Positions 51,631 through 64,000 of a stretch of DNA of 64,000 nucleotides are shown piece by piece. Position numbers and translations under genes: made by a program. Position 1 is the stretch's first letter. The number at the start of each line of letters is the position of its first letter. The stretch lies in the IMG/VR virus record IMGVR_UViG_3300025000_000004. The stretch is one strand, 5' to 3'. Under the pieces are notes generated by a model. It had not been told where the DNA came from and ran no database searches. It was given only the letters and a program-made list of their open reading frames with translations. The DNA is from an uncultured virus (IMG/VR IMGVR_UViG_3300025000_000004) (Duplodnaviria; Heunggongvirae; Uroviricota; Caudoviricetes; Crassvirales).

Positions 51631-51664
51631 AGTCAAGGAATAGAGTAAATTTTTACAGGGAAAT

Positions 51665-51699
51665 AAAAAGGGAGCTACATTTCTGTAACTCCCTTTTTT
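51665..51699. terminator. Bidirectional intrinsic terminator between convergent modules
   Basis: AAAAAGGGAG-ctacatttctgtaa-CTCCCTTTTTT, with A/T tracts on both sides. Confidence 0.8.
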
Positions 51700-51734
51700 G
51701 GGAATATATATAGTGGAAAATCAAGGGCAAAGAG

Positions 51735-51866
51735 CAAGAGAGATTACCAGCGATAGTTGTTTTGAAGCATAATGTAGGGATCGAACCTACGTCATTTTGA
51801 TTAGAATTCAAATGCTCCACCAACTGAGCTAATTGTGCGAAGTAACTATCCTCTTTACTACTCTTG
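51735..51866 (-). ncRNA. Y-like RNA A: tRNA(UCU)-like cloverleaf (51767-51838) with acceptor stem extended by the conserved helix
   Basis: CAAGAG/CTCTTG and GATAGTT/AACTATC stems flank a complete cloverleaf; motif TAGTAA-N4-GATAGTTACTTCG. Confidence 0.7.
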
Positions 51867-51870
51867 TTTG

Positions 51871-51942
51871 TAGCGGGTGGGAGAATTGAACTCCCGACTC
51901 TCAGCCTATGAAACTGCTTATCTACCACTGATATAACCCGCA
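51871..51942 (-). tRNA. tRNA with CAT anticodon (Met/fMet-like; 1:72 unpaired)
   Basis: GCGGGT/ACCCGC acceptor, TATC/GATA D-stem, loop TTCATAG, GGGAG-TTCAATT-CTCCC T-arm. Confidence 0.75.
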
Positions 51943-51948
51943 ATATTA

Positions 51949-52106
51949 AAATTATAGAGAAACCGATAAGACTGTCTTTGTTTATACAAATCCTAAATTT
52001 GTTGCCTGTACCAATTCGGCTATTCCCCCAGTTATTATTAATTAGCGGGGGAACTTGGACTCGAACCAAGAAATCGAAGTAAGTCTCATTCTTACTACTA
52101 TAATTT
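51949..52106 (-). ncRNA. Y-like RNA C: circularly permuted tRNA-Leu(UAG)-like domain joined to the conserved helix at the variable arm
   Basis: Order: AAATTATAG stem, motif, T-arm (CTTGG TTCGAGT CCAAG), TTCCCCC, loop, GGGGGAA, D-arm, ACAAA TTTAGGA TTTGT, AGTCTT, CTATAATTT. Confidence 0.75.
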
Positions 52107-52108
52107 AG

Positions 52109-52257
52109 TGGGGGAGGCTGGAATCGAACCAACTTTTTCATTTTTCAAGATGAAAGGTTTACCTACGAAGTAACTCTCAAAATCACAACTTGTCAACGAC
52201 CCGGTAAGTCCCGGTCTAAAGAGAAAACTCTCAAGAGTGTTTTCAAATTACTCCCCC
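52109..52257 (-). ncRNA. Y-like RNA D: tRNA-like (UGA-type loop) with the conserved helix inserted in place of the D-arm
   Basis: GGGGGAG/CTCCCCC acceptor, GTTGG TTCGATT CCAGC T-arm, TTTCAT/ATGAAA anticodon stem; insert ACTCTT..hairpin..GAGAGTTACTTCG. Confidence 0.7.
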
Positions 52258-52290
52258 GTTTTATTATTTAAAAGAACATGTCAGAAAAAA

Positions 52291-52389
52291 GAAAGAAAAA
52301 AGAAAGAAAAGTGGAAGAGACTGGTTTCTATTAAAGATTTACAAGCTTTTTACGAAGTAAGTCTCTTCCTTACTATTCTTTTTTCTTTC
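52291..52389 (-). ncRNA. Y-like RNA E: conserved helix with no tRNA domain
   Basis: 14-bp GAAAGAAAAAAGAA/TTCTTTTTTCTTTC stem, TAGTAA/ACTTTTCT internal element, GGAAGAGACT/AGTCTCTTCC, TACTTCG; starts just after a promoter. Confidence 0.7.
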
Positions 52390-52394
52390 ATGTA

Positions 52395-52426
52395 CAAATG
52401 TAATATATTAGATTGGATAATCCAAA
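52395..52426 (-). promoter_or_regulatory. Bacteroidota-type promoter driving the Y-like RNA cluster
   Basis: Minus strand TTTG-N20-TACATTTG immediately after the TROVE stop codon. Confidence 0.75.
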
Positions 52427-52429
52427 CTA

Positions 52430-54073
52430 TTATATCACAATTTTTTCAATCTCCTCAACGATTGCTTTATAACCAGCTGTACCTGATGATATTACATCGA
52501 AGATTTTTTCACTCCATCCAGCAATCTGAGTTACGTTTAGATTCTTGTTGAAGACTGTAGTTCCGCTTGTCTGGTGAATATCGACAGAAACAACTTTGAT
52601 ACGAGGATAAAGCTTTCTGAATTCAGAAAACATTTTCTGGAAGCTACCTGAATGATCACCACTACTATGTAATCCATACCATCTGTTGTTCTCACCTATG
52701 ACCATATCAGAGAAAACTATGATGTTATCTACTGGTTTCTTGTCACGGATAAGTTCTCTGAAGAATGTGTAAACACCCTGCTCTGTTCCTCCACCGCATT
52801 CACGACCTTTCTGATACATACGTCTGGTTGTTTGAAGAATTCCTTCTTCTCTGTTAACAGTAAAAGGTAATAGTCTGTCTCCAAATAGTCCAACGTATAC
52901 ACTTGGTTGCTTTGAAAGTAACATTGCTGCAAACACATCTGCGATATCTACACTTGTAGTCTTAGATAAAGCTGATACTAAGCTGCTGCCACCACCATCA
53001 CCTCTCATTGAACCTGAGTGATCAATAAGGATTGCTGTTCTTCCTTCCAGTTCAGGAATATTTGCACAAGAGAGTTCGATTGCTTTTTCAATAGCTGGTA
53101 AAAGCTTTTTTTTGATCGCTTCAAGTTCAGTAGTATTTACCTCTCTTGTTTTGATCTCATCTTCAAATACGATAGAAGATTTATCAGCTTTAGCCGATGC
53201 TTTTAGCATCTCAATCTCATTGTATGCGGACAGGAATCTGAATGGAAGCAGTCTGGACTTCTGAATAGTCTCAGGATTAGTAAGCTGACGTATCGCTTCA
53301 TCAACACTGTCAGGTGCAGAGAGAACAATGTTTCTCAGGTTTCTTAACAGGTTAAAGATAGGCATACCTTTAACGTTATCAAGAACTGATTCGATTGCTT
53401 CTTTCTTAGCTTCCTGAACCTTCTCTTTCGATACAGTACCAGCTTTACTCATTTCTTTTTCAAGAATCTTTGAGCTGTATAGCTTATCAAGTCCCTTACC
53501 ATCTTTAGTCATTAACAGTTTGAACGCTTCAGCATTCTTCTGTGTTGCTTTAGGACGAAACAGGTTAACAAGATCAATCAGACTTATACTACGACCTGAC
53601 ATCTTATACTTATCAATAAGATAAGGATCAAGAGTCTCAAGTTTGGCTTTAAAGCCTTTTCTGATAGCGTTGGAAAATGCTTTCTGTTTCATTACGTTCT
53701 TGTAATAGGAAACAATTTCCGACATGTCATCAGGTCTTACGAGTACTTTCGTATAGAACCTCTTCGCCCATTCTTCTCCACCTATTCTTGGAGCAAGTTC
53801 TCCAGCCAGAAGATGAGAAACAGTTCTCATGTTAGCTTCGGTTCTTGCGTAGATTGCGGTTTTTGCAACGAACAAAGGATCACAGGCTAATGCAGCGTTC
53901 TTAATTCTTTCTACAATTGCCTTTTCAGACTCATAGTAAGACTTCTGAACGAATGTAGTTAGTACTGTTGATACAAGTTCTTCTTTTGGGTCAAGTTTAT
54001 ACGCTTTTTCACCCATAGCGTTTGTCTCAGTAGGAAGATGAGTTCCCACTTTCTTTTCATTGAACTTTGCCAT
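52430..54073 (-). CDS. rsr: Ro60/TROVE domain ribonucleoprotein with vWA domain
   Basis: N-terminal GEKAY..PKEEL, YARTEANMR, RPDDM, LLRNLRNI and SRLLPFRF TROVE motifs; MIDAS DHSGS; FSDM; IAGWSEKIF. Confidence 0.92.
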   Translation of the reverse strand: MAKFNEKKVGTHLPTETNAMGEKAYKLDPKEELVSTVLTTFVQKSYYESEKAIVERIKNAALACDPLFVAKTAIYARTEANMRTVSHLLAGELAPRIGGEEWAKRFYTKVLVRPDDMSEIVSYYKNVMKQKAFSNAIRKGFKAKLETLDPYLIDKYKMSGRSISLIDLVNLFRPKATQKNAEAFKLLMTKDGKGLDKLYSSKILEKEMSKAGTVSKEKVQEAKKEAIESVLDNVKGMPIFNLLRNLRNIVLSAPDSVDEAIRQLTNPETIQKSRLLPFRFLSAYNEIEMLKASAKADKSSIVFEDEIKTREVNTTELEAIKKKLLPAIEKAIELSCANIPELEGRTAILIDHSGSMRGDGGGSSLVSALSKTTSVDIADVFAAMLLSKQPSVYVGLFGDRLLPFTVNREEGILQTTRRMYQKGRECGGGTEQGVYTFFRELIRDKKPVDNIIVFSDMVIGENNRWYGLHSSGDHSGSFQKMFSEFRKLYPRIKVVSVDIHQTSGTTVFNKNLNVTQIAGWSEKIFDVISSGTAGYKAIVEEIEKIVI

Positions 54074-54116
54074 TTAATTAAAGTTTAAGTTACTACTAAT
54101 TTATAATTAGAGAAAA

Positions 54117-54716
54117 TCATCTGTTTCGTTTGTTAACTCGCATGTGATCCGCTTTAATCTTAGGAATGTGATTTATATAAACCACGTTTCTTAATTTTTC
54201 TTCCGATGTCAGTTTTTCACTCACACGTTCGTATTCAGGAGAATCCAACCACTCTTCATATTGCATACTCCCTCTCGTATTATTACATTTCTTACAGGAC
54301 GTAATCAGATTGTCATCTATTGATGGACCTCCTTCTTCCCACAGCACAATATGATCTACTGTAAGAGGAACATGGTCATTGCCACAATAACGACATTTGT
54401 ATCCATCACGCCTGAATACTGCCCAAGACACACTAAGATCTATCTGTCGTGTTGATTTACGAACAATAATCTTTTTATTTGAGTCTCCTGAGACTATTTC
54501 TGTTTCAAGAAGATCAGACTGTCTTACGATTTTATTCCACTCTTCAAGAGTAGGAGTTAAAATCTTCATCATTGTCGGTTCTTCCTGTGCTGGTAACATT
54601 ATCATAAAGTCCTCACTTGTATTACCATAGAGTACTCCTTTAATCTCTAATGAGTTACCTATTTTTAATAGATCAAAGTCTTCAAATTTCATTTTACTGT
54701 TCGATTTTAATTTCAC
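54117..54716 (-). CDS. HNH endonuclease
   Basis: VFRRDGYKCRYCG..LTVDHIV..GG..DNLITSCKKCNNTRG. Confidence 0.88.
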   Translation of the reverse strand: MKLKSNSKMKFEDFDLLKIGNSLEIKGVLYGNTSEDFMIMLPAQEEPTMMKILTPTLEEWNKIVRQSDLLETEIVSGDSNKKIIVRKSTRQIDLSVSWAVFRRDGYKCRYCGNDHVPLTVDHIVLWEEGGPSIDDNLITSCKKCNNTRGSMQYEEWLDSPEYERVSEKLTSEEKLRNVVYINHIPKIKADHMRVNKRNR

Positions 54717-55797
54717 CTTGGTTAATTACTACTTTACCTGTTTTGAGCAGAATATTAGTAGAATCACCTTCGATCAATCTTCCACTACGATAGAAGATAA
54801 CAAAATCACCCTCATATATTCTTGCACCTTGTTGCCAGTATCCATTTTGTTTTACCAGTACAGGATCAAAACCGACTGCCCAATAATCTGACATAGCTAT
54901 ACCCATATCAAATTCTGTAGGAGTACCCCATTGAAGCCTGAATCGGGGAGCAAAATTAATAAAATCCTTGAAATTAGGATTCATTACTTGTGAATGTGTA
55001 TCATATCCCATCTCTCGCCACTGCGTAAGAGTCTTCTGTACTCCTGCTACTATAAAGAGAGGTTCTCCTTTTTCACACCAAAATATATTATAATCACTTT
55101 CAAATCCTTGTAAACAAGCTGTATCCATAACATTTATGTTATAGATACGATTCTTGGTATAGAAGATGTTATTCTTGATCTTGACATACTTTGCATCTGC
55201 AACTGGATTATCATTCTTATACACATCAATTAATCCACGCCAAGTTCCAATACCCGGAGATACGTAAGTAGAATCTTCTGAGTAAAATGTATTATTGTAA
55301 ATTCTTACTCCATTCATTCCTTTTACAACTACTCCTACAGCAGGTGGACTTACTATTATATTATAAGCTACTACCCCTGTAGAATCAGTCATTCCATCAC
55401 TCTTACGAATAATTCCCATTGGAACATGATCAAGGTAATTATACATTATACGAGCATTTGCTTCGTATCCTGTAAAGATACCATGTGTTATAGTGTTCGC
55501 ATTCTGATCTCCTGTCCAGACAAACTTATTACCAGTAATTAAACTGTTAGGAAGAGTATTAACGTATTCTGGATAAATGTTAGTCTCTACTCCTGCCTGA
55601 AGAAGATATCCTCCTGTATTACATGCTTCTACATAGTTATTCTTGAACACAAATGTAGCAAGTTCTCCACGTGGAATACTAATGCCGTTTACGTTTGTAC
55701 AAAGAGTATCTATATATCTTTGACCTTCATAGGTTAAAGTAATTTGACCAAATAAAACAGAAGGGAACAAGAATAATAGTATCAGCAATTTTTTCAT
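54694..55797 (-). CDS. Secreted right-handed beta-helix protein
   Basis: MKKLLILLFLFPSVLFGQ signal peptide; IYNNTF, IKNNIF, SDYNIF repeats; TLTQWREMGYDTHS. Confidence 0.65.
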   Translation of the reverse strand: MKKLLILLFLFPSVLFGQITLTYEGQRYIDTLCTNVNGISIPRGELATFVFKNNYVEACNTGGYLLQAGVETNIYPEYVNTLPNSLITGNKFVWTGDQNANTITHGIFTGYEANARIMYNYLDHVPMGIIRKSDGMTDSTGVVAYNIIVSPPAVGVVVKGMNGVRIYNNTFYSEDSTYVSPGIGTWRGLIDVYKNDNPVADAKYVKIKNNIFYTKNRIYNINVMDTACLQGFESDYNIFWCEKGEPLFIVAGVQKTLTQWREMGYDTHSQVMNPNFKDFINFAPRFRLQWGTPTEFDMGIAMSDYWAVGFDPVLVKQNGYWQQGARIYEGDFVIFYRSGRLIEGDSTNILLKTGKVVINQGEIKIEQ

Positions 55798-56378
55798 TTT
55801 ACAATGTATGAATCATTATTACTTGCAAATATGAATGTACGACCTCCATATCCTGTTTTGGCATGACCCGGAGAAGTTAGTATTGATAGAACTTTTTCAT
55901 CATATTGTCCTATCGGGCGTTGATCTTCTGGAATTCCTGCTGCTTCCCAATCAAAATTAGTATCAAAATATTGTTCTTGTTCAGCTAACATTCTATCTGC
56001 TGCATCATACATACTGTTTATCTTCAGCCAATTATCAGTAAGAAGATTACCTGTCGGAGTAATTGTAGGAGGTTGATTGTCTTTTAATGTAACTAAAAAA
56101 CTTACTTCAGTAAAAAGATCAAAGACATCAGTTGCTCTGATTGTAACAATTACTTCAGGATTTGCGATAGTTAATACAGTTCCTATTGCAGGAGTTTGTG
56201 TGATAGATTTTATACTGCAATTATCTTCCACTATGACATACTCATCTGTAGTATAATCAGGAAGAACAGCTTCACAATTCTGATTCACAAAAAGATATTG
56301 TGGAGGAATTTGTGCTATTAAGCACGTGCAACTGCTTGCAAGCAGCATTACGATTGTTAAAATAAATAGTTTTCTCAT
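55794..56378 (-). CDS. Secreted protein with HYR/Ig-like domain
   Basis: Signal peptide; CEAVLPDY..DNCS..TQTPAIG..VTIRATD..DNQPPTIT. Confidence 0.6.
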   Translation of the reverse strand: MRKLFILTIVMLLASSCTCLIAQIPPQYLFVNQNCEAVLPDYTTDEYVIVEDNCSIKSITQTPAIGTVLTIANPEVIVTIRATDVFDLFTEVSFLVTLKDNQPPTITPTGNLLTDNWLKINSMYDAADRMLAEQEQYFDTNFDWEAAGIPEDQRPIGQYDEKVLSILTSPGHAKTGYGGRTFIFASNNDSYIVK

Positions 56379-56404
56379 AATTGAACAGATTTAATTTATT
56401 AAAT

Positions 56405-56478
56405 TGGTCGCCCCACCAAGACTCGAACTTGAACTCTGAGATCCAAAATCTCATATGCTACCATTACATAATAGGGCA
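56405..56478 (-). tRNA. trnQ: tRNA-Gln(TTG), encoded CCA
   Basis: Cloverleaf; anticodon loop TTTTGGA. Confidence 0.88.
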
Positions 56479-56479
56479 G

Positions 56480-56554
56480 TGCTCAAGGATGGATTTGAAC
56501 CACCGACTCCGAACTTATCAGATTCGTACTCTAACCAAGCTGAGTTACATGAGC
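56480..56554 (-). tRNA. trnI: tRNA-Ile(GAT)
   Basis: Cloverleaf; loop CTGATAA. Confidence 0.9.
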
Positions 56555-56565
56555 ATATTCAGACG

Positions 56566-56817
56566 TTATTCGATCTTCATTGTTTTAAGATCGAATCTTT
56601 TGTATCTTCTTTTTTCATATTCTTCAATCGGAACATTGAATACACTATATAATGCATAAAATGCAACGATAAAACCATGAATAAAGAAAATGACCCGTAA
56701 TAGTTTCCAATTTACTTGAGTTATATCTTCATTAAATATCAAAATTAAACCGAATAATCCAATTAATATTGAAGTTATGAAGATAAAGAACCAAAATAAC
56801 ATTTTTGTTGTTGTCAT
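56566..56817 (-). CDS. Small membrane protein
   Basis: Two TM segments. Confidence 0.5.
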   Translation of the reverse strand: MTTTKMLFWFFIFITSILIGLFGLILIFNEDITQVNWKLLRVIFFIHGFIVAFYALYSVFNVPIEEYEKRRYKRFDLKTMKIE

Positions 56818-56829
56818 TTCTCTTGTATT

Positions 56830-57081
56830 TTAGTGATTACAATCATTCATGTAAAAATCTATTTGACCATCGGCATGTTTTAAAAGATCCTTAAGTCTTT
56901 CGACTTCCTCTTTAAGTTCATTTCTCTGCTGAAGTAGCTCTGTACTTCTAAGAACAGTATAGGCTTCCATAGCATCAAGTGCAACACCAATAGATACTAA
57001 ATGTAAAGGGCAAATTATCTGGCTCATGCTCTTATGCCTTTGAAGTAATTCCTCTGCCTGTTTTCTTTCTTCTGTTGTCAT
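56830..57081 (-). CDS. Hypothetical coiled-coil protein
   Basis: 83 aa ORF. Confidence 0.5.
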   Translation of the reverse strand: MTTEERKQAEELLQRHKSMSQIICPLHLVSIGVALDAMEAYTVLRSTELLQQRNELKEEVERLKDLLKHADGQIDFYMNDCNH

Positions 57082-57191
57082 TTTAACATCCGTTTTTTAT
57101 TGCAAGTATAGCAAACACTACTATTATAGCTATTACACAACCTATAACTACATTTGCTTGGAATTGTCCGTTATCAATATACTTTATCTCT

Positions 57192-57407
57192 TTAACGTTT
57201 TGAATTATACACTTTATTATTTTTCTCACGCCATTGATTATCCCACATATCACGATATGTATTACATCCGCAAGATTGATTGCTTTTTGGCATTATCATA
57301 TTCTTACCTTGTGGATAACGGGAATAATAAGGTTGATATGCATTCTTACTACAGCTTGAAGCTACCAGTAAAAAAAGAACGAAGAGAATAGTAATCGTTT
57401 TCTTCAT
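57192..57407 (-). CDS. Small lipoprotein
   Basis: MKKTITILFVLFLLVASSC lipobox-like signal. Confidence 0.55.
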   Translation of the reverse strand: MKKTITILFVLFLLVASSCSKNAYQPYYSRYPQGKNMIMPKSNQSCGCNTYRDMWDNQWREKNNKVYNSKR

Positions 57408-57438
57408 AGTATTGATTTTAATTATAACTTTATTATAG

Positions 57439-57511
57439 CGGAACGTGAGAGACTCGAACTCTAACCACCTGCGTGACAGGCAGGGATACTAACCATTATA
57501 CGACACGCTCC
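57439..57511 (-). tRNA. trnD: tRNA-Asp(GTC)
   Basis: Cloverleaf; CCTGC CTGTCAC GCAGG. Confidence 0.88.
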
Positions 57512-57515
57512 ATTG

Positions 57516-57588
57516 CACACTGGGAACGGCTCGAACATTCGACCTTCTGTTTTGGAGACAGACATTCTACCAACTGAACTACCAGTGC
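57516..57588 (-). tRNA. trnW: tRNA-Trp(CCA)
   Basis: Cloverleaf; TCTGT CTCCAAA ACAGA. Confidence 0.9.
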
Positions 57589-57593
57589 GTTAG

Positions 57594-57667
57594 TTGACCC
57601 TACCGGGAATGATCCGATGATCCCCTGATTATGAGTCAGGTGCTTTAACCGTCTAAGCTAAGGGTCA
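57594..57667 (-). tRNA. tRNA(CAT), probably Ile2 (lysidine) rather than Met
   Basis: CCTGA CTCATAA TCAGG; atypical T-loop ATCATTC; the operon leader has two ATA codons (inference). Confidence 0.75.
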
Positions 57668-57671
57668 ATAG

Positions 57672-57743
57672 CGGACACAGAAGGAGTCGAACCTACGACC
57701 AATTGGTTAACAGCCAACTGCTCTACCTCTGAGCTATGTGTCC
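57672..57743 (-). tRNA. trnN: tRNA-Asn(GTT)
   Basis: Cloverleaf; loop CTGTTAA. Confidence 0.9.
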
Positions 57744-57749
57744 TTTATA

Positions 57750-57968
57750 TTATCTATCAAGCAATCCAACTATTATCTGAGCAAAAATTATTATTAGTAA
57801 CATCAACAACATAAGTCCTATTGCTAACCCAAGAGGTAACCAAATAGGAGAAAATACCCACCACCAAGAAATATCAATTACATGTGTAAGTTTAAGAACT
57901 ATTAACACTATTGTAACCAATGTCATTGATGGACCAAAATTAATGTTTACTGCTTCTTTGTTGCTCAT
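57750..57968 (-). CDS. Small membrane protein
   Basis: LIVLKLTHVIDISWWWVFSPIW; two TM segments. Confidence 0.6.
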   Translation of the reverse strand: MSNKEAVNINFGPSMTLVTIVLIVLKLTHVIDISWWWVFSPIWLPLGLAIGLMLLMLLIIIFAQIIVGLLDR

Positions 57969-58275
57969 TGTTCTGAGGTTTTAAATGGTCATCACTATAT
58001 GCTCCTAACCATTTCTCTATTCTCATTGATAATTTTACTCCTGAGAGTGAACCTGCAACCGTTCCTAATACATAAGGAACAAATAGCATCCAGTTCATAT
58101 CAGATAGAACGAGTTCACGAAAGGTTAAGAACCAAATTGTATTCGAGAACGTTGCAGCGATAAGATGATATGTCATGTTATTTCTGTTTCTGCTTCTCGA
58201 TACTATACTAAAACTTACATTCTGTATATATGCAAGTATAAGAATTTTTATTGAGGAATAGATCATGTTATACAA
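57940..58275 (-). CDS. Small membrane protein
   Basis: Three hydrophobic segments; YVLGTVAGSLSG. Confidence 0.55.
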   Translation of the reverse strand: MYNMIYSSIKILILAYIQNVSFSIVSRSRNRNNMTYHLIAATFSNTIWFLTFRELVLSDMNWMLFVPYVLGTVAGSLSGVKLSMRIEKWLGAYSDDHLKPQNNEQQRSSKH

Positions 58276-58505
58276 ATTGCGTTAACATCTGCTTTATCTA
58301 TCTCCCCGTCTCCCAACATATTAATGGTGACGATAACATCATCGTTTCTGTCAGAAGATTCAATCTTACAAAGAGTTGGTTCATAATGAACCTTCTTGTA
58401 ATCATTTCCCTCGTCATCAGTTGAAAAGACTACTTCCATATCTTCACGATTAGAAATATCTTTCGTATGATGTTCGATTGCTTTTAAAAATTGTCCTAAA
58501 TTCAT
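58263..58505 (-). CDS. Hypothetical protein (start revised; the track start lies upstream, across the tRNA)
   Basis: MNLGQFL..STDDEGN..NAICIT; ATG at 58505, downstream of tRNA-Ala. Confidence 0.55.
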   Translation of the reverse strand: MNLGQFLKAIEHHTKDISNREDMEVVFSTDDEGNDYKKVHYEPTLCKIESSDRNDDVIVTINMLGDGEIDKADVNAICIT

Positions 58506-58528
58506 AATGTCAAAGAGCATTAAATTAG

Positions 58529-58601
58529 TGGAGTTGAAGGGATTTGAACCCTTATCCTTCACAGTGCAAGTGTGACGCTCAACCAGTTGAGCTACAACCC
58601 C
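58529..58601 (-). tRNA. trnA: tRNA-Ala(TGC)
   Basis: Cloverleaf; G3:U70 pair; loop CTTGCAC. Confidence 0.9.
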
Positions 58602-58605
58602 ATAA

Positions 58606-58717
58606 AGTATAGAAGACAGAATATCGTTCCCCATCAGTGCAAAGCCTCAGCAATTGACCACTTGCATAATGAAATCCTTCGAGGCGATGGACGAATTGCT
58701 CACTCATCTTCTATACT
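58606..58717 (-). ncRNA. Unidentified structured (pseudoknot-capable) RNA between tRNA-Val and tRNA-Ala
   Basis: 11-bp terminal stem AGTATAGAAGA/TCTTCTATACT; CCATC/GATGG; crossing GCCTC/GAGGC and TGCAA/TTGCA. Confidence 0.55.
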
Positions 58718-58794
58718 GGTGCTTCTTGCAGGATTTGAACCTACGACTTCCACCTTGTAAGGGTGGCACTTTCAACCAACTGAGTTAAAGAAGC
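58717..58794 (-). tRNA. trnV: tRNA-Val(TAC), encoded CCA
   Basis: Cloverleaf; CCACC CTTACAA GGTGG. Confidence 0.9.
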
Positions 58795-58826
58795 AATAAA
58801 AAACCCCTGACTTTTGATCAGGGGTT
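58795..58826 (-). terminator. Attenuator terminator of tRNA operon 2
   Basis: AACCCCTGA-TCAAAAG-TCAGGGGTT then TTTTATT, immediately before tRNA-Val. Confidence 0.8.
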
Positions 58827-58851
58827 CTATTTGACTAACATTCTTGTTCAG

Positions 58852-58926
58852 TTATAAATATAGAAATCCCCTGCCAGATCTTTGATCAGCTACTTGATTC
58901 CAAATATTTATGACTACTATGAGCAT
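58852..58926 (-). CDS. Leader peptide 2, MLIVVINIWNQVADQRSGRGFLYL (not in ORF track)
   Basis: ATG 58926 to TAA 58852, between promoter and terminator; its 3' end pairs with the terminator 5' arm. Confidence 0.7.
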   Translation of the reverse strand: MLIVVINIWNQVADQRSGRGFLYL

Positions 58927-58948
58927 TTCAATTCAATTGTTTAAGACG

Positions 58949-58980
58949 CAAATATATGTAATAGATATTTAATCTCCAAA
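58949..58980 (-). promoter_or_regulatory. Bacteroidota-type promoter of tRNA operon 2
   Basis: TTTG-N20-TATATTTG. Confidence 0.8.
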
Positions 58981-59712
58981 TTATCTGCGACCTTTTTCTT
59001 CAGGATAAAGATTTTTTACTGTATCAGACTGCCAATATTTTTTTGTGTAAACATCCATAAGAGTTAATTTACCTTCCCATCCTGCACCCTGATCAAGATT
59101 CCAGACATTGGAAACGTGAACTGGTTTAAGACTCTTATCTGCATAAGATGTAGTTGTATGACCAATAAATACTTCTTTATAACATTCTACTGTATTCTTG
59201 GCTTCATCAGGATGAGTTATATTGAAACTATGATGCATTGATGCTACAGTATACAAATGTCTATCCCACATTAAATCTCCCGGTAATTGTTCACTAATTG
59301 GATATTTCCAAGCAAATCCTCCATGTACAAACAGCATCCCATCAAATTCGTAATAGAAAACAGCTTTAGACAAGAATTTCTCGTGACGTTTAGCTATCTT
59401 ATTTCCTTCCTTTTTAAAGTGTCTGAGATATGCATCAATCGTAGCCTGACCTCCCTGGAGTGTCCATATAGCAGGGACATTACCAAACATAAACCACTGG
59501 TATAACCAATTGTCGTGATTACCCATAATATAGGTAAGATTCTTTATTTTAAGGAGTTCCTCAAAACATTCAGGAACTTCACTCCATCCATCGGCTACAT
59601 CACCAAGGCATATCAGAGTATCTTCTTTATAGTTAAAACTCGATAACTCAAGAACCTGCTTTAATGCTCTGTATGCACCATGTATGTCTCCTATTGCAAA
59701 TACTCTTTTCAT
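58981..59712 (-). CDS. Calcineurin-like metallophosphoesterase (lambda NinI/PrpA-like)
   Basis: GDIHG, LGDVADG, GNHD, FVHGG, GHT and LDQG motifs. Confidence 0.9.
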   Translation of the reverse strand: MKRVFAIGDIHGAYRALKQVLELSSFNYKEDTLICLGDVADGWSEVPECFEELLKIKNLTYIMGNHDNWLYQWFMFGNVPAIWTLQGGQATIDAYLRHFKKEGNKIAKRHEKFLSKAVFYYEFDGMLFVHGGFAWKYPISEQLPGDLMWDRHLYTVASMHHSFNITHPDEAKNTVECYKEVFIGHTTTSYADKSLKPVHVSNVWNLDQGAGWEGKLTLMDVYTKKYWQSDTVKNLYPEEKGRR

Positions 59713-59713
59713 A

Positions 59714-60193
59714 TTATGATAACATTAGTTCAATGTAATTAAATTTATCTCCAAGTGCTTCAGTAATATTAATCTCATTACCTTCAAATCCTCTGAGTTG
59801 ATTATTATACAATAGTATATATTTTGGTACTTTTAATTCTTTTTTTACAAATTTCTTACCTTTCTCGGTAATCTTCCAAAATCCACTTGTTCTGGTTTTT
59901 GTATCATTAGAGTCTTTTTCAAGTTCGTCTATCATTCCCCAATACTTAAGTTTTGATAACTCACTTCCACCAATACCAAAATCTATACCGAGTAAATCAT
60001 TGTAAATGTGAAAATATTCAACATCTGGATTTGATTTACTTTTTCTGTATAAAAGAATTAGAGTTCGTGCCATTGAAGTGTTCAATTTTCGTTTATACAA
60101 TTTAACAAATTGATTACAACAAGGACAAACAACACCTTTTTTATAATTTTCTCTTAAAAATTGTTTTGCTTCTCTTAATGTTTCCATATACAC
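59714..60193 (-). CDS. Hypothetical protein, possible winged-helix DNA binding
   Basis: CPCC; KLKYWGMI..SGFWKITEKG. Confidence 0.55.
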   Translation of the reverse strand: MYMETLREAKQFLRENYKKGVVCPCCNQFVKLYKRKLNTSMARTLILLYRKSKSNPDVEYFHIYNDLLGIDFGIGGSELSKLKYWGMIDELEKDSNDTKTRTSGFWKITEKGKKFVKKELKVPKYILLYNNQLRGFEGNEINITEALGDKFNYIELMLS

Positions 60194-60201
60194 ATTTTTA
60201 G

Positions 60202-60286
60202 CGGAGAATACAGGATTTGAACCTGTACACCGTTTCCGATGGATAGATTAGCAATCTACTGCGATACCAGATTACGCCAATTCTCC
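60202..60286 (-). tRNA. trnS: tRNA-Ser(GCT)
   Basis: Cloverleaf with long variable arm; loop TTGCTAA; G73. Confidence 0.9.
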
Positions 60287-60295
60287 AAACTCTTG

Positions 60296-60625
60296 TTACT
60301 TGCCAACATTAAAAAGTTCAATTAACTCTCTTTTACACAGAAACTGGAATAATGATGCAGCTCTGTTAAATGCTTTACGTTCCTGACCTTTCGGTACTTG
60401 CGTAAGAATAGTAATAACTCCTTTACTATTAAGGTGTTCATTTAATCTTGCTGATGCAAGCCTTCTTCCTTCTGCTTTCACAAAGTTATCATTTTTTGAA
60501 CATATTGCAATACTCATAGTTATTTGATTTGATGTGCAATATCCTGCAATAGTAAACCTGTATGGAAAACATTTATATGTTTCACCGTGAAAGAACAGAA
60601 TCTCTTTGTTTTCTGATTGTTCCAT
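60296..60625 (-). CDS. Hypothetical phage protein
   Basis: 109 aa; CSKNDNFVKAEGRRLA motif. Confidence 0.55.
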   Translation of the reverse strand: MEQSENKEILFFHGETYKCFPYRFTIAGYCTSNQITMSIAICSKNDNFVKAEGRRLASARLNEHLNSKGVITILTQVPKGQERKAFNRAASLFQFLCKRELIELFNVGK

Positions 60626-60647
60626 ATTTATAGTTATTAATTATTTG

Positions 60648-60721
60648 TACACCCGACAGGGATCGAACCTGTAACTTACGGTTTAGAAAACCGTTACTCT
60701 ATCCGATTGAGTTACGGATGC
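60648..60721 (-). tRNA. trnR: tRNA-Arg(TCT)
   Basis: Cloverleaf; ACGGT TTTCTAA ACCGT. Confidence 0.9.
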
Positions 60722-60726
60722 ATAAG

Positions 60727-60811
60727 CGGAGACAGTAGGACTCGAACCCACAGTACCTTGCAGTACTCCAGTTTTCAAGACTGGTGCAATAGCCAATTCT
60801 GCCATATCTCC
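60727..60811 (-). tRNA. trnS: tRNA-Ser(TGA)
   Basis: Cloverleaf with long variable arm; loop CTTGAAA. Confidence 0.9.
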
Positions 60812-60815
60812 ATAG

Positions 60816-60886
60816 ACAGTCTGATAGGACTCGAACCTACGTGAGTGATTTTGCAGACCACTACCTTGCCTCTCGGACACAGACTG
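60816..60886 (-). tRNA. trnC: tRNA-Cys(GCA)
   Basis: Cloverleaf; loop CTGCAAA; U73. Confidence 0.88.
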
Positions 60887-60890
60887 ATAG

Positions 60891-60975
60891 TGGGAAACGA
60901 GGGAATCGAACCCCCACCCTTACGGGACTACGGATTTACAGTCCGCTGCAACTAACCAATAGTTACCTCTTTCCC
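60891..60975 (-). tRNA. trnY: tRNA-Tyr(GTA)
   Basis: Cloverleaf with long variable arm; loop CTGTAAA. Confidence 0.9.
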
Positions 60976-60980
60976 ATTAG

Positions 60981-61052
60981 AGCGTAATGTCGGTCTCGAA
61001 CCGCTTCCTCTGCTTGGAAGGCAGACGCTTTACCAATTAAGCTACATCACGC
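60981..61052 (-). tRNA. trnG: tRNA-Gly(TCC), atypical acceptor/T-stem geometry
   Basis: TCTGC CTTCCAA GCAGA; 8-bp acceptor and shortened T-stem. Confidence 0.8.
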
Positions 61053-61056
61053 ATAA

Positions 61057-61232
61057 AAGTACATTACCATCTCCAGTTTTTATTTATGGTTTGTTCCCCA
61101 TAACCTGTTTCTGTGCACAGAAGAGCAGGAACTTGAACAGGACACTACAGACAAATAGGGTAGCTATCTCCCGAAGCCGTAGTCTGTTTCAACACAACCT
61201 TTCGGAAACGTGTGCTCTGTAGTAATGTACTT
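61057..61232 (-). ncRNA. Unidentified multibranch structured RNA within tRNA operon 1
   Basis: 11-bp terminal stem AAGTACATTAC/GTAATGTACTT enclosing several hairpins. Confidence 0.55.
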
Positions 61233-61234
61233 AG

Positions 61235-61307
61235 TGGAATAAACTGGATTTGAACCAATTTCCCCGGATTTTCAGTCCGGTGCATAGACCATCTCTGCCA
61301 TTATTCC
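61235..61307 (-). tRNA. trnF: tRNA-Phe(GAA)
   Basis: CCGGA CTGAAAA TCCGG. Confidence 0.88.
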
Positions 61308-61313
61308 ATTGAA

Positions 61314-61440
61314 AAGAGAGAGGATTTTATAGCGGTAGACTAATAAACTTATTATCAAACAACTAATCTTCCCATCCCTTAGGTTTGAACCACAGGGGGG
61401 TCTTGTTAATTATTTATTTTTTCAGTTTTACCTCTCTCTT
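61314..61440 (-). ncRNA. Unidentified rod-like RNA within tRNA operon 1
   Basis: AAGAGAGAGG/CCTCTCTCTT terminal stem, AAATAATTAA/TTAGTTGTTT inner stem, apical GGTTCAAACC. Confidence 0.5.
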
Positions 61441-61442
61441 AG

Positions 61443-61515
61443 TACACATAGAAGGAGTCGAACCCTCAACCTATTGATCCGTAGTCAATCGTTCTGTCCA
61501 TTGAACTATATGTGT
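61443..61515 (-). tRNA. trnR: tRNA-Arg(ACG)
   Basis: ATTGA CTACGGA TCAAT. Confidence 0.88.
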
Positions 61516-61518
61516 AAG

Positions 61519-61589
61519 TGACTCCGATTGGAATCGAACCAATGTCTTCGCCTTAAAAGGGCGAGGCTAAACCACTTTGCTACGAAGTC
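61519..61589 (-). tRNA. trnK: tRNA-Lys(TTT)
   Basis: TCGCC CTTTTAA GGCGA. Confidence 0.88.
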
Positions 61590-61990
61590 AATAAATAGTA
61601 AATATCTTTATCCTTTATGTTTGTATCATCTTGTTTAACAACAGGATTTGATATAGGATAAGAATTTGATGTTGATGCATAAGGATTTGAAGTTGATGCA
61701 TACTGAGGCATATAAGGATTTCGAGTATTACCTCTAATAGAACTGTATCTATAATCAAGTTCACGACATAGATGATGTATTTCTTCTGCATTACCTCTCT
61801 CCATTATATCTCTTATTCTTACTTCAGTCTCAGCATCTACTTTAATTCTATACAAAAATTCAGATAAACCCATTCTTTCTACTAACCCTCCATTTGATTG
61901 TTGATATACAACTTCATAAGAGCGTACTTGAAGATTTGGAGAATATTGAGGTTGATAAACTCTTCTAATTTCTACCATGTTAAAGAACAT
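61580..61990 (-). CDS. Hypothetical protein
   Basis: 136 aa with YASTSN repeat; stop codon falls inside the 5' end of tRNA-Lys. Confidence 0.5.
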   Translation of the reverse strand: MFFNMVEIRRVYQPQYSPNLQVRSYEVVYQQSNGGLVERMGLSEFLYRIKVDAETEVRIRDIMERGNAEEIHHLCRELDYRYSSIRGNTRNPYMPQYASTSNPYASTSNSYPISNPVVKQDDTNIKDKDIYYLLTS

Positions 61991-62004
61991 TTAAGTTAAA
62001 CTTG

Positions 62005-62077
62005 AGCTGAAGGCAGGAGTTGAACCCGCAACCATCGGTTTACAAAACCGCTGCTCTACCATTAAAGCTACTCCAGC
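62005..62077 (-). tRNA. trnT: tRNA-Thr(TGT)
   Basis: Cloverleaf; loop TTTGTAA. Confidence 0.9.
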
Positions 62078-62080
62078 AAT

Positions 62081-62111
62081 AAAAAAGGTCCTGCTATTTC
62101 TAACAGGACCT
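62081..62111 (-). terminator. Attenuator terminator of tRNA operon 1
   Basis: AGGTCCTGTTA-GAAA-TAGCAGGACCT then TTTTT, 3 nt before tRNA-Thr. Confidence 0.8.
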
Positions 62112-62165
62112 CTCACCCAACTAAATCTACTAATCACTACTAACAAAAAGCCACTTTCCAGAGAT

Positions 62166-62243
62166 TTAGGTGTATAAGTCCTGTACGACAAGGGTTTTAC
62201 CCTTGCCAGTTTTTGAGGAATATGTACAACTAAATCGTTTCAT
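62166..62243 (-). CDS. Leader peptide 1, MKRFSCTYSSKTGKGKTLVVQDLYT (not in ORF track)
   Basis: ATG 62243 to TAA 62166, 4 nt after the -7 box; its 3' end pairs with the terminator 5' arm. Confidence 0.7.
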   Translation of the reverse strand: MKRFSCTYSSKTGKGKTLVVQDLYT

Positions 62244-62247
62244 GTCG

Positions 62248-62278
62248 CAAATATAAAACATAGGTTTGAGAAATCAAA
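62248..62278 (-). promoter_or_regulatory. Bacteroidota-type promoter of tRNA operon 1
   Basis: TTTG-N19-TATATTTG. Confidence 0.8.
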
Positions 62279-63098
62279 ATAAAATTGAACCTTTTTTATC
62301 CCATGCGGTATATAAATGTCCGTCTGTTTGATAAATTAATGATCTTAGATCACTTTCCTTGCTTGCTTCCTGAATACAATAATCCATAACTGTTACTCCG
62401 ATTCCAAAGAGATCGTGTACTGAAGCTCCGAAAGGAAGAGTACGTACAAGTGTTTTATCATTGCACATTTCCTTCATATCCCTGAGAATATGTTGGTAGA
62501 ATACTTCTGCCTGAGCCTCAATCCATTCTTGTGTCCTTTGAGATTCGTTTGTATTGGTAACATTATCAGGAATGGTAGGAATTCTGAAGGTAAGTTGTGA
62601 AACATTATGATTAAGACAATATCCTATTATGTTCCGGAAAGTTCTTTCTCTCCAATCATGTCCTAAAACGATTGTCAGTCTTACCATAAGATTCTCTTGA
62701 AAAGCTTCGATCATCACATTTCCCAGCTTAAGAAGATCATTAGGTTTTGCGATTGATAGTGCAAGAACATTTAATCCTTTCTTATATAAGGTTGACAAAG
62801 CTGTTTTGCTTGTTATCAGAAATTGTCCATTTGTTTGCAGTTCAATTGGAATATTAGAATTGTTAAAGTACTCAATGATACGTAAAGTATCTGTTGGATT
62901 ATCCAATGGTTCACCTTTTCCTGTAATCAGGATGCTGTTTATTCCACTGAACATTGCTATCGTTTTTACCTTATTAAGATTTCTCCAGTAGAGTTCTTTA
63001 TTATAAGGTATTTCTCCTGTCATTTTACTGATACAGAAAGGACAGTTGTGTACGCAGTTAGGAGTGTTGATACTGATTGTTAAATTATTCGCTTTCAT
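62274..63098 (-). CDS. Radical SAM protein (start revised to MKANNL)
   Basis: CVHNCPFC (CxxxCxxC), ITGKGEP and ELQTNG motifs. Confidence 0.85.
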   Translation of the reverse strand: MKANNLTISINTPNCVHNCPFCISKMTGEIPYNKELYWRNLNKVKTIAMFSGINSILITGKGEPLDNPTDTLRIIEYFNNSNIPIELQTNGQFLITSKTALSTLYKKGLNVLALSIAKPNDLLKLGNVMIEAFQENLMVRLTIVLGHDWRERTFRNIIGYCLNHNVSQLTFRIPTIPDNVTNTNESQRTQEWIEAQAEVFYQHILRDMKEMCNDKTLVRTLPFGASVHDLFGIGVTVMDYCIQEASKESDLRSLIYQTDGHLYTAWDKKGSILF

Positions 63099-63618
63099 AA
63101 TATCTGTATAATGAATGAATATCTGGTCTTTTTTCTTTTGAACCGTCGTATATAACGAAGGTTGCTTTATAATTTGCACCGAGAGATTTAACATGTTCGA
63201 TTATTGTATCGACTGTTCTTCCAGAATAAAAAGAATCATCTATAATAATAACATCCTGACCATTGAAATCTTCTTTAAATGGTTCAAGTGAATCAATAGG
63301 TTCACCATTTCTTAATCCTCCATTGACACCATATACATAATCGTTATCAGCACCATAACATTCGATCCAGTTCTTAAAGAATACACCGAACTTACCTGTT
63401 ACTACATAAATATGTAGTTTATAATCTATGAACTTGTCGATTTTATCATACAAAGATTGAATAATATCCGGGTCTCTTACTGCAATATCAAGGTTCTCAA
63501 AAAATTCTTTTCCCCCTGTATGTAACTGAAGCATTTGTCTGACAACTTCGTTTATTTTAGGGCGAGTGATTTTATTACCAGAATCTTTGGTCTGGTCTGA
63601 AATGGTAAGATTCTTCAT
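63085..63618 (-). CDS. Type I phosphoribosyltransferase-like protein
   Basis: PRPP-binding motif VIIIDDSFYSGRT. Confidence 0.75.
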   Translation of the reverse strand: MKNLTISDQTKDSGNKITRPKINEVVRQMLQLHTGGKEFFENLDIAVRDPDIIQSLYDKIDKFIDYKLHIYVVTGKFGVFFKNWIECYGADNDYVYGVNGGLRNGEPIDSLEPFKEDFNGQDVIIIDDSFYSGRTVDTIIEHVKSLGANYKATFVIYDGSKEKRPDIHSLYRYYESE

Positions 63619-63643
63619 ATATATTTAATTTGGATTAATGTTG

Positions 63644-63725
63644 TGCTCTTAGTCAGACTCGAACTGACACACCTCTCGATATAAGTTCCTAAGACTTACG
63701 TGGCTACCAATTACACCATAAGAGC
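63644..63725 (-). tRNA. trnL: tRNA-Leu(TAG)
   Basis: Cloverleaf with variable arm; TAAGT CTTAGGA ACTTA. Confidence 0.9.
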
Positions 63726-63733
63726 AGTAAAAA

Positions 63734-63961
63734 TTATTTTCCGAATACTTCAGGATGAATAACTCCGTCAATATATCCGAAAAGCATTGCACGTTGCTGT
63801 TGATTTCCAACGAACTTATGTTTTACTTCTTCGCGAAGCTTGTTCCACTCAACAACGTTTGTTGCGGTTTTTAGCTTCTCTGTAAGCTCGATGTTCTTGT
63901 TAATAACTGCTTTCTGTTCTGCATCATTGAAAAACGATCTGTTGTTGTTTACTCTTTCCAT
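63734..63961 (-). CDS. Hypothetical protein
   Basis: 75 aa ORF between tRNA genes. Confidence 0.5.
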   Translation of the reverse strand: MERVNNNRSFFNDAEQKAVINKNIELTEKLKTATNVVEWNKLREEVKHKFVGNQQQRAMLFGYIDGVIHPEVFGK

Positions 63962-64000
63962 CTATATGTTTTTTAATTAATAAATCTGTGCTCTGAGAGA

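Follow-up and report, generated by a model that had tools for sequence, protein, structure and literature searches.

In enterobacteria, multivalent attenuators sense more than one amino acid: the leader peptide of the thr operon lists Thr and Ile, and that of ilvGMEDA lists Ile, Leu and Val. The pheST genes are controlled through the pheM leader peptide. The general logic of leader-peptide attenuation in amino acid operons is set out in PMC1183508, and the account of the His-leader of bacilli in PMC2965389 extends leader-peptide control to a synthetase gene (hisS/hisZ). That account, published in 2010, confines earlier demonstrations of leader peptides to Proteobacteria and Actinobacteria; with it, some Firmicutes join the groups in which they were reported. 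We describe here three candidate attenuators that precede the tRNA gene blocks of a crAss-like phage. The DNA analysed, called the window throughout, is a 64,000-nucleotide stretch of an uncultured virus (IMG/VR IMGVR_UViG_3300025000_000004; Crassvirales). Each block of tRNA genes in question is headed by a short leader open reading frame (ORF) that contains a list, a run of codons drawn solely from the amino acids of the tRNAs encoded behind it.

Leader ORFs and the blocks they precede

ARAGORN identifies 21 tRNA genes in the window, every one on the minus strand. An earlier note, made from the letters of the window alone, had described two blocks of them (blocks 1 and 2, Table 1), each starting with a promoter, a short ORF, an antiterminator/terminator switch and then the first tRNA gene. 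The tRNA content and order given for both blocks are borne out, and all elements of the architecture lie where that note had placed them. Leader ORF 1 begins ATG AAA CGA TTT AGT TGT ACA TAT TCC TCA AAA ACT GGC and continues AAG GGT AAA ACC CTT GTC GTA CAG GAC TTA TAC ACC TAA. As had been claimed, its list and that of leader ORF 2, which includes ATA twice and ATT, are drawn from exactly eight and exactly seven amino acids, and the two sets are disjoint and equal to the content of their own blocks. The spacer from stop codon to terminator hairpin is 52 nt in leader 1 and 24 nt in leader 2. Both leader RNAs fold better than all of 200 shuffled sequences (z = -4.07 for leader 1 and -3.95 for leader 2).

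When metagenomes were scanned with the phosphoesterase gene of the window, the one contig found was that of the window itself (99,808 bp). The two agree without a difference across 15,017 shared nt, and the contig is therefore the same genome, continuing past the window end. Block 0, of which the window holds the last tRNA gene, lies for the rest beyond that end and consists of Pro-tgg, Glu-ttc, His-gtg, Leu-taa, a 75-aa ORF and then Leu-tag (ARAGORN; locus L001, region 5410-5725, and the window). It too has a leader, which begins ATG AAA AGG GTA TTA CTT CCA TTG CAT CTC GAA CAT GAA CCG and continues TTT GAC AAA CAG AGG GTA ATG GAA AAA CTA TAA. The core of this leader 0, LLPLHLEHEP, is exactly {L,P,H,E}, and the block behind it is Pro-Glu-His-Leu-Leu. 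A 39-nt spacer and a 12-pair hairpin with U-tract follow, 7 nt 5' of tRNA-Pro. Leader 0 is a passed out-of-sample prediction, because its stretch lay outside the view of the earlier note.

The three lists are disjoint and jointly name 19 amino acids. Met alone is absent; AUG starts every leader, so that elongation stalling cannot sense Met. The genome has 25 tRNA genes in total. They serve all 20 amino acids, each four-codon box being left to a single UNN tRNA, and are a complete minimal decoding set.

A box of sequence TATATTTGC stands 4-22 nt 5' of each leader ATG. The window has three copies of it, two of them at leaders, and leader 0, outside the window, has another. The putative promoters P1 and P2 were assigned on the Bacteroidota consensus TTTG / TAnnTTTG, and their function is likewise supposed from it. 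With its ATG 4 nt past the box, the leader 1 mRNA would be leaderless or nearly so.

Correspondence between lists and blocks

The whole 64-kb window was scanned in six frames for codon runs restricted to the amino acid set of one block. The run of leader 1 (16 codons, 8/8 amino acids) is the longest of 29,855 set-1 runs, followed by runs of 15, 15 and 14 codons. Its length by itself is not extreme; its location in the leader ORF of that same block is. Of the 25,995 set-2 runs, none is as long as that of leader 2 (13 codons, 7/7 amino acids), and those that follow have 10 and 9 codons. Among 21,910 set-0 runs in 69.7 kb, LLPLHLEHEP ranks second in length, and first among those with all four amino acids. 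When leaders 0, 1 and 2 are each compared with sets 0, 1 and 2, the runs are 10/2/1, 1/16/4 and 1/6/13 codons, with the large values on the diagonal.

In a partition test, the leader peptides were held fixed and the 19 amino acids were randomly split into sets of 4, 8 and 7. None of 1,000,000 draws reached the summed longest in-set run of 39 found in this genome (largest drawn, 32), and none of 1,000,000 reached the 37 of the related genome G002 (largest drawn, 31). The correspondence of list and block is real, and chance falls far short of explaining it. The lists also hold more rare synonymous codons than expected (16/84 against 6.8, P ~0.0005, with the codon usage of the window genome applied to all leaders).

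Leaders in related genomes

Alignment of a graded series of closer capsid proteins gave 79 IMG/VR loci, and three complete contigs (G002, G003 and G004) are 86-90% identical in capsid protein. G002 is 90% identical and has 24 tRNA genes in the same order as the window, although the tRNAs themselves are only about 60-85% identical; G003 and G004 have 3 and 1 tRNA genes. All three leaders are present in G002 (Table 1), and their cores have the same amino acid sets as those of the window in a different residue order. Against 23.5 kb of G002, two of these cores are the longest run of their set, and the third is the second longest and the longest with all four amino acids. Leader 1 of G002 has both CGA and AGA and thus a cognate codon for all 10 block-1 tRNAs. 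A third contig, L087 (UDG 56% identical), has MKTTSLHLLPEEPSNRG and a terminator before Pro-Glu-His-Leu, with the core LHLLPEEP.

Across the three genomes the short ORFs are kept in presence and length (17-26 codons), and their composition is kept while residue order is not. Drift in order and nucleotide sequence but not in composition is what one would expect if it matters which codons the ribosome reads. In the array-poor G003 and G004 the syntenic UDG-to-TROVE region is packed with protein genes and has no short ORF-terminator unit; where the tRNA blocks are missing, therefore, so are the units, and the two are gained or lost together. The third unit outside the window, the three of G002 and the one of L087 bear out the prediction that the rule extends to relatives and to further blocks.

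The tRNA-Met gene lies outside the gated blocks, and in G002 a plain promoter is found 11 nt upstream of it. The CAT-anticodon tRNA of block 2 is plausibly a tRNA-Ile2. Its acceptor stem (UGACCC..) has C4-G69 and C5-G68 in both the window and G002, base pairs that we take to be TilS determinants, and both leader 2 lists contain ATA and no internal ATG. G002 has in addition a 32-codon Lys/Gly/Ser-rich short ORF, MAKKSGNKSAPKDKGMGQGKKGSGKKGSCKRK (L081 8249-8350), that ends 1 nt before the leader 2 ATG. It stands behind a TAACTTTG box, and its last 14 residues all belong to set 1.

Terminators and antiterminator pairing

The terminators of leaders 1 and 2, T1 and T2, are the two strongest among 14 terminator-like sites in 50000-64000 (shuffled sequences: mean 6.6). 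In 7/7 leaders the terminator has a stem of 11-15 pairs and a tract of 6-8 U, and lies 6-9 nt 5' of the first tRNA. Strong terminators at most 10 nt from a tRNA are found only at leaders (3/3 in this genome, 3/3 in G002 and 1/1 in L087).

The last 4-6 codons of the ORF repeat the core of the terminator 3' arm and are complementary to the 5' arm in all seven leaders. The pairs of tail and arm are given in Table 1; those of leader 0 in G002 and L087 are similar to that of leader 0 here. Their duplexes have energies of -12.1 to -15.5 kcal/mol and p values of 0.002-0.012 in each of the seven leaders, the null being 3000 random 27-nt windows of the same genome. For leader 1 the values are -13.5 kcal/mol and p = 0.0097; for leader 2, in which 11 of 12 arm bases pair inside the ORF, they are -13.6 kcal/mol and p = 0.0027. 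Fisher's combined p for the seven duplexes is 8.5e-10, a figure to be read with the homologous leaders not being independent. The terminator hairpins are stronger than these duplexes (-16.2 to -21.6 kcal/mol), a relation also seen in classical attenuators.

Each leader RNA was also truncated just before the terminator 3' arm and its minimum free energy (MFE) structure calculated. In 6/7 leaders this structure pairs the 5' arm with ORF codons 15-24, in the last 4-6 codons of each ORF, which gives a concrete form to the antiterminator proposed in the earlier note. The exception is leader 1 of G002, where the MFE structure picks another partner despite a perfect 9-bp complement in the ORF tail.

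The complementarity is retained where the sequences differ. The leader 1 stem is wholly different in the window and in G002, and the tail matches each (GGUCCUG/CAGGAC versus AAGUCCCAU/AUGGGACUU). In leader 2 (CCCCUG/CAGGGG versus CCCUG/CAGGG) the C-run is one base shorter in G002, and the G-runs of tail and 3' arm mirror it. RNA pairing with the terminator 5' arm dictates, and thereby explains, the off-list tails of the peptides (QD.., RGFLY, QRV, RWDF, NQGT). The list ends 1-3 codons upstream of the antiterminator strand, so that stalling anywhere in the list would leave the strand accessible, whereas a ribosome that has reached the stop codon would cover it. Leader 1 has a further 9-pair hairpin inside the ORF, which does not sequester the antiterminator strand. 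An ORF with product-related codons and a terminator before the first gene are thus found in 7/7 leaders, together with an ORF tail that can pair with the terminator 5' arm to the exclusion of the hairpin.

Proposed mechanism

We put at about 75% the probability that transcription of all three tRNA blocks is controlled by ribosome-mediated attenuators, one per block, that time the decoding of the listed codons. Architecture, list/block identity, alternative pairing, conservation in relatives and co-occurrence with arrays were all computed from sequence. In the proposed mechanism, a host-type promoter (TAnnTTTG) would start the RNA at or near the AUG of a 24-25-codon ORF. The ribosome would pass 1-4 start-proximal codons and then 10-16 codons drawn solely from the amino acids of the block's tRNAs. 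The last 4-6 codons would serve as the antiterminator strand against the 5' arm of the terminator, which ends 6-9 nt ahead of the first tRNA. If the list is read fast, the ribosome would cover this strand and the stop codon, the hairpin would form and transcription would end. If any listed codon is slow, the strand would be left free to pair with the 5' arm, and the polymerase would enter the tRNA block and the protein genes embedded in it. Each unit would then respond, as an OR-gate or a stopwatch, to the capacity for decoding 4, 8 or 7 amino acids, all but Met between them, and the complete set of tRNAs that the phage brings would come under negative feedback. The feedback would be negative, and act on decoding capacity, because each block supplies tRNAs for exactly the listed amino acids. 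The position of tRNA-Met outside the gated blocks, the enrichment of rare codons and the plausible tRNA-Ile2 of block 2 fit this attenuator reading.

T1 and T2 are the sole strong terminators after blocks 0 and 1, the next being at L001 18017-18046; each of the two ends one unit and gates the next.

Points against an attenuator

Several observations weigh against this reading, some of which concern the codons themselves. The earlier note had held that the leader codons list the tRNAs they control, and had suggested a permutation check of the codon/anticodon match. At the level of amino acids the claim stands, random partitions giving 0/1,000,000; at the level of codons it does not. The leader 1 list of the window has no AGA or AGG, and hence no codon for Arg-tct. 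Strict-wobble cognates are not enriched in the lists, and standard-wobble cognate codons number 8/10, 11/16 and 11/13 in leaders 0, 1 and 2 of this genome, where its codon usage predicts 6.5, 12.6 and 10.9. These counts do not support the view that the lists match the anticodons codon by codon. Since cognate codons are not enriched, the device may gauge total aminoacyl-tRNA supply; the sensor may, in other words, read the general supply of amino acids or aminoacyl-tRNA and not the phage tRNAs specifically. The list codons TCC, GGC, ACC, ACT, GGT, CTT, CTC, GTC and GCT would need either four-way reading by a single UNN tRNA or host tRNAs, and for NNC codons in four-codon boxes superwobble by the sole UNN phage tRNA would be needed.

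Other points concern the signals. In L001 the generic TAnnTTTG motif is about as frequent as expected, without enrichment (29 occurrences, 23.6 expected). Two thirds of this genome's leaders would be leaderless mRNAs, whose translation in the host is assumed. No consistent 1:2 (anti-antiterminator) element is found across the seven leaders, and with no such hairpin evident an untranslated leader would, unlike that of trp, read through by default. The model further presumes promoter use, translation of the short ORFs, transcription-translation coupling, the efficiencies of read-through and termination, and a physiological trigger.

The remaining points are comparative. One partition is common to all three genomes, and no change of block content with a matched change of leader is seen among them. 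None of six Steigviridae arrays (crAss001, cr85_1, cr111_1, cr106_1, DAC17 and cr126_1) has a leader-plus-terminator unit, and the design is for that reason lineage-restricted. In these phages a single array covers nearly all amino acids, which makes the list test powerless there.

Alternative explanations

The alternative that survives best is nevertheless unlikely. In it the switch senses amino acid starvation, that is, uncharged tRNA generally, and regulates mainly the embedded protein genes (radical SAM, phosphoribosyltransferase, phosphoesterase and small membrane proteins), with the tRNAs as passengers. A match that holds for amino acids and not for codons is in keeping with this, and protein genes are found inside all three transcription units without a terminator of their own. 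However, the lists are the exact tRNA content, and nothing visible ties them to the embedded proteins. G002 does not have the same embedded genes as the window genome, yet both keep the lists and tRNAs, and the relatives without arrays are also without units.

It is improbable that translation of the short ORFs acts post-transcriptionally, the ribosome controlling processing or stability of the pre-tRNA leader through the access of RNase P or RNase E. Although the hairpin ends 6-9 nt from the mature 5' end and is inside the RNase P substrate, the tract of 6-8 U on each hairpin is typical of intrinsic terminators, and mutually exclusive pairing is classic attenuator logic.

More improbable still, the hairpins could be ordinary operon-end terminators of the upstream genes, the tRNAs being transcribed by leaky read-through and the short ORFs being accidental and untranslated. 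T1 and T2 are indeed the sole strong terminators downstream of blocks 0 and 1, and in both L084 (an unrelated phage) and cr111_1 (L099) a plain terminator stands between a protein gene and the tRNA close behind it. This explanation leaves unaccounted for the list/block identity in 7/7 leaders, the conserved complementarity of tail and arm, and the TATATTTGC box near each ATG. Least likely of all is that the short ORFs encode functional micropeptides, or that the leader binds tRNA directly as a T-box does and without a ribosome: their presence and length are conserved in the three genomes, but so is composition without residue order, the tails are set by RNA pairing, no T-box or other Rfam leader is matched in 51000-64000 at E <= 1, and 10-16 in-frame triplets between AUG and stop indicate ribosomal reading.

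For the ribosome-mediated attenuator, which we prefer, the trigger may be either host anticodon nucleases or plain supply-and-demand feedback. A tentative extension, which we regard as possible and rather doubtful, is that the three attenuators form a 19-amino-acid sensor that switches in the phage tRNA set blockwise when the host tRNA pool fails, as a translation-level counter-defence circuit. The failure would come from host anticodon nucleases or from phage-induced loss of host tRNA, and the Ro60/TROVE, phosphoesterase and radical-SAM genes would join in one RNA-maintenance module. A link to anticodon nucleases of the PrrC or PARIS type is speculation.

Searches for further cases

Single-protein searches of IMG/VR with the phosphoesterase and the radical SAM protein found no close relatives. 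Alignments of the UDG and of the 101-109-aa protein gave only G002, L087 and one contig of 34% identity without tRNAs nearby. A degenerate INIWNQ pattern matched G002 and five chance sites in coding DNA, none with tRNAs, and a pattern search for the antiterminator and terminator gave G002, L087 and one chance match. Among 13 further capsid relatives, no tRNAs were found in G001, G005, G006 and eight of G007-G016; G007 and G008 have 2 each. tRNAs are likewise absent from Cellulophaga phi14:2 and Flavobacterium FpV4. Four DNA runs matched only the identical phage (0 other letters in long pieces) and unrelated tRNAs, and showed no population variation.

A 21-mer of tRNA-Val was found in G002 and in L084, the unrelated 146-kb phage, which has no leader. 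The array of L084, reached through this common tRNA-Val 5' end, includes a CTA-anticodon (amber-reading) tRNA at 7609-7681, which hints at TAG recoding.

Outside phages, the 105 nt upstream of E. coli pheV contain a promoter and no short ORF or terminator, and the attenuator-like leader supposed for E. coli tRNA-Phe genes was not borne out for pheV. A cmscan search of 51000-64000 at E <= 1 gave just tRNAs, freshwater-1 and weak chance matches, with no match to the Rfam leader families (Trp/His/Leu/Thr) or T-box. The phage locus is therefore not a member of those families.

Genomic context

The phage is a member of the Crassvirales: its crAss-type major head protein matches phrog_11589 at 6.9e-94, and a 4497-aa ORF is present. 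By tblastn the head protein is 35-38% identical over its full length to Crassvirales capsid proteins, and at most 38% identical to that of any GenBank phage. This crAss-like genome also has an integrase-like gene (12050-12985, plus strand; phrog_1, 5.2e-29), a homing endonuclease (30353-31042, plus) and an HNH endonuclease (54117-54716, minus).

Table 1. Features of the tRNA units: positions in the window unless another locus is named, and leader sequences of G002.
Feature	Coordinates	Strand	Description
Candidate -33 element of P1	62275..62278	minus	TTTG, 19 nt upstream of -7 box
Candidate -7 box of P1	62248..62255	minus	TATATTTG, then CGAC (4 nt), then ATG 62243
Leader ORF 1	62166..62243	minus	25 codons and stop (62168-62166): MKRFSCTYSSKTGKGKTLVVQDLYT
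Leader 1 list region	62193..62240	minus	KRFSCTYSSKTGKGKT; codons 2-17, 16 codons, exactly K, R, F, S, C, T, Y, G
Antiterminator strand, leader 1	62176..62184	minus	ACAGGACUU; codons 20-23, complementary to T1 5' arm
Intrinsic terminator T1	62083..62114	minus	14 pairs and U-tract, ATT, then tRNA-Thr; ends 6 nt before it
tRNA block 1	62077-60201	minus	Thr-tgt, Lys-ttt, Arg-acg, Phe-gaa, Gly-tcc, Tyr-gta, Cys-gca, Ser-tga, Arg-tct, Ser-gct
159-aa protein (phrog_2693) and 243-aa NinI-like metallophosphoesterase	58981..60193	minus	between block 1 and leader 2
Candidate -7 box of P2	58949..58956	minus	TATATTTG; TTTG 20 nt upstream; 22 nt to ORF
Leader ORF 2	58852..58926	minus	24 codons and stop: MLIVVINIWNQVADQRSGRGFLYL
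Leader 2 list region	58882..58920	minus	IVVINIWNQVADQ; codons 3-15, 13 codons, exactly I, V, N, W, Q, A, D
Antiterminator strand, leader 2	58862..58874	minus	GCAGGGGAUUUCU; codons 18-22, complementary to T2 5' arm
Intrinsic terminator T2	58800..58828	minus	12 pairs and U-tract, ATT, then tRNA-Val; ends 6 nt before it
tRNA block 2	58794-56405	minus	Val-tac, Ala-tgc, Asn-gtt, CAT, Trp-cca, Asp-gtc, Ile-gat, Gln-ttg
Leader 0	L001 5250-5403		TATATTTG, CATC, ATG; beyond window end, before tRNA-Pro
tRNA-Leu(tag)	63643..63725	minus	last tRNA of block 0; remainder of block beyond window end
Phosphoribosyltransferase-domain gene	63085-63618	minus	177 aa; between block 0 and leader 1
Radical-SAM gene	62274-63194	minus	306 aa; between block 0 and leader 1
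Tail and arm, window leader 0			ORF tail CAGAGGGU; terminator 5' arm ACCCUCUG
Tail and arm, window leader 1			ORF tail ACAGGACUU; terminator 5' arm GGUCCUGU
Tail and arm, window leader 2			ORF tail CAGGGGAUUUCUAU; terminator 5' arm AUAGAACCCCUG
Tail and arm, G002 leader 1			ORF tail AUGGGACUU; terminator 5' arm AAGUCCCAU
Tail and arm, G002 leader 2			ORF tail AAUCAGGG..CUAU; terminator 5' arm AUAGAACCCUGAUU
G002 leader 0			MKVTTLHLLPEEPSKQRVLE; before Pro; core LHLLPEEP, 8 codons, all of {L,H,P,E}
G002 leader 1			MLVRFRYTKYSSCKGTSSARWDFYI; before Thr; core RFRYTKYSSCKGTSS, 15 codons, all 8 set-1 amino acids
G002 leader 2			MMKTLVINIWNQIDVDQAIYNQGTMY; before Val; core VINIWNQIDVDQAI, 14 codons, all 7 set-2 amino acids

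Block 1 is interrupted by a 136-aa ORF after tRNA-Thr and by a 109-aa ORF between Arg-tct and Ser-gct, and block 2 has small ORFs between Ala and Asn and between Asp and Ile-gat. The metallophosphoesterase gene (58981-59712, minus) is NinI-like and also matches a phage RNA-ligase/phosphatase PHROG. No strong terminator is found between it or the 159-aa gene and T2, and both are probably co-transcribed with block 1. The radical-SAM/phosphoribosyltransferase stretch (62274..63618) likewise has no strong terminator ahead of T1. The embedded metallophosphoesterase, radical-SAM and phosphoribosyltransferase-domain proteins may function in tRNA repair or modification. A strong terminator with 13 pairs and a U-tract follows the last tRNA, Arg-tct (51667-51696, minus, equal to L001 18017-18046), and marks the end of the entire tRNA region.

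A fourth candidate unit, before tRNA-Met/Arg-tct (L001 17311-17450, MKEKRIVRKRLTS), is not a leader. Its 3' part is a copy of a recurring ...CTTACTTCG motif, which is also found 5' of tRNAs and tRNA-like pieces in G003 and G004. The window also has a TROVE/Ro60-like gene (52430-54073, minus; Pfam 1.9e-16, phrog_850 1.9e-37), followed by about 490 nt of non-coding DNA (51943-52429, minus). The latter holds tRNA-like half molecules arranged like those of a permuted tRNA, T-arm and acceptor 3' strand coming before acceptor 5' strand and D-arm, together with four copies of a ...(G)AGA(C/G)TTACTTCG motif. This motif also stands immediately 5' of tRNAs in the array-less G003 and G004 (loci L082 and L083). 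The non-coding DNA, which has no Rfam match, may be a Y-RNA-like partner of Ro.

Two spacers of block 1 have features of their own. The 181-nt spacer from tRNA-Phe to tRNA-Gly contains a match to the Rfam freshwater-1 RNA (RF02979; 61078-61139, minus) over the full model length, at 68 bits against a gathering score of 72 and E = 3e-14. The 134-nt spacer between tRNA-Arg(acg) and tRNA-Phe (61308-61441, minus) has a closed fold with a 10-pair terminal stem, AGAGAGAGG.../...CCUCUCUCU. With z = -4.66 and 0/200 shuffled sequences folding as well, it is a structured RNA.

Comparison with known attenuators

A full-text search of the openly available literature found no published account of leader-peptide attenuation of tRNA genes or of phage tRNA arrays; within that scope the earlier note's description of the arrangement as undescribed for phage tRNA arrays stands. 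For the question of why phages have tRNA genes and how they control them, this locus offers a concrete and testable logic, in which supply would be fed back from decoding speed, block by block. If true, attenuation would reach tRNA genes as the controlled product, lists of as many as eight amino acids and phages of a phylum with few documented attenuators, and synthetic biology would gain in the leaders a set of small, naturally evolved gauges of decoding capacity. Were the trigger tRNA cleavage by host defences, the leaders would represent a novel type of phage counter-defence circuit.

The T-box is a functional analogy, in that a terminator/antiterminator decision reports on a specific tRNA pool. 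It binds uncharged tRNA through one specifier codon and without a ribosome, whereas in the phage a translated ORF would be the sensor. The pheST and hisS leaders resemble the phage units in that attenuation acts on the charging or decoding machinery rather than on biosynthesis. They address one amino acid and a synthetase, in contrast to the multi-amino-acid lists and whole tRNA blocks of the phage. The phage units follow the logic of the trp, his, thr and ilv attenuators. The closest likeness is to thr and ilvGMEDA, which share with the phage units a short ORF with regulatory codons, a terminator before the first gene, an antiterminator competing for the 5' arm, read-out by ribosome position and the sensing of more than one amino acid. 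The phage units differ from these enterobacterial attenuators in that no 1:2 hairpin is seen, in belonging to what is presumably a Bacteroidota phage and in having no Rfam leader match. Their lists name as many as eight amino acids, each by one codon or a few, where thr and ilvGMEDA have runs of one to three kinds. The enterobacterial leaders control biosynthetic enzymes, whereas the phage units would control tRNAs, the decoders themselves.

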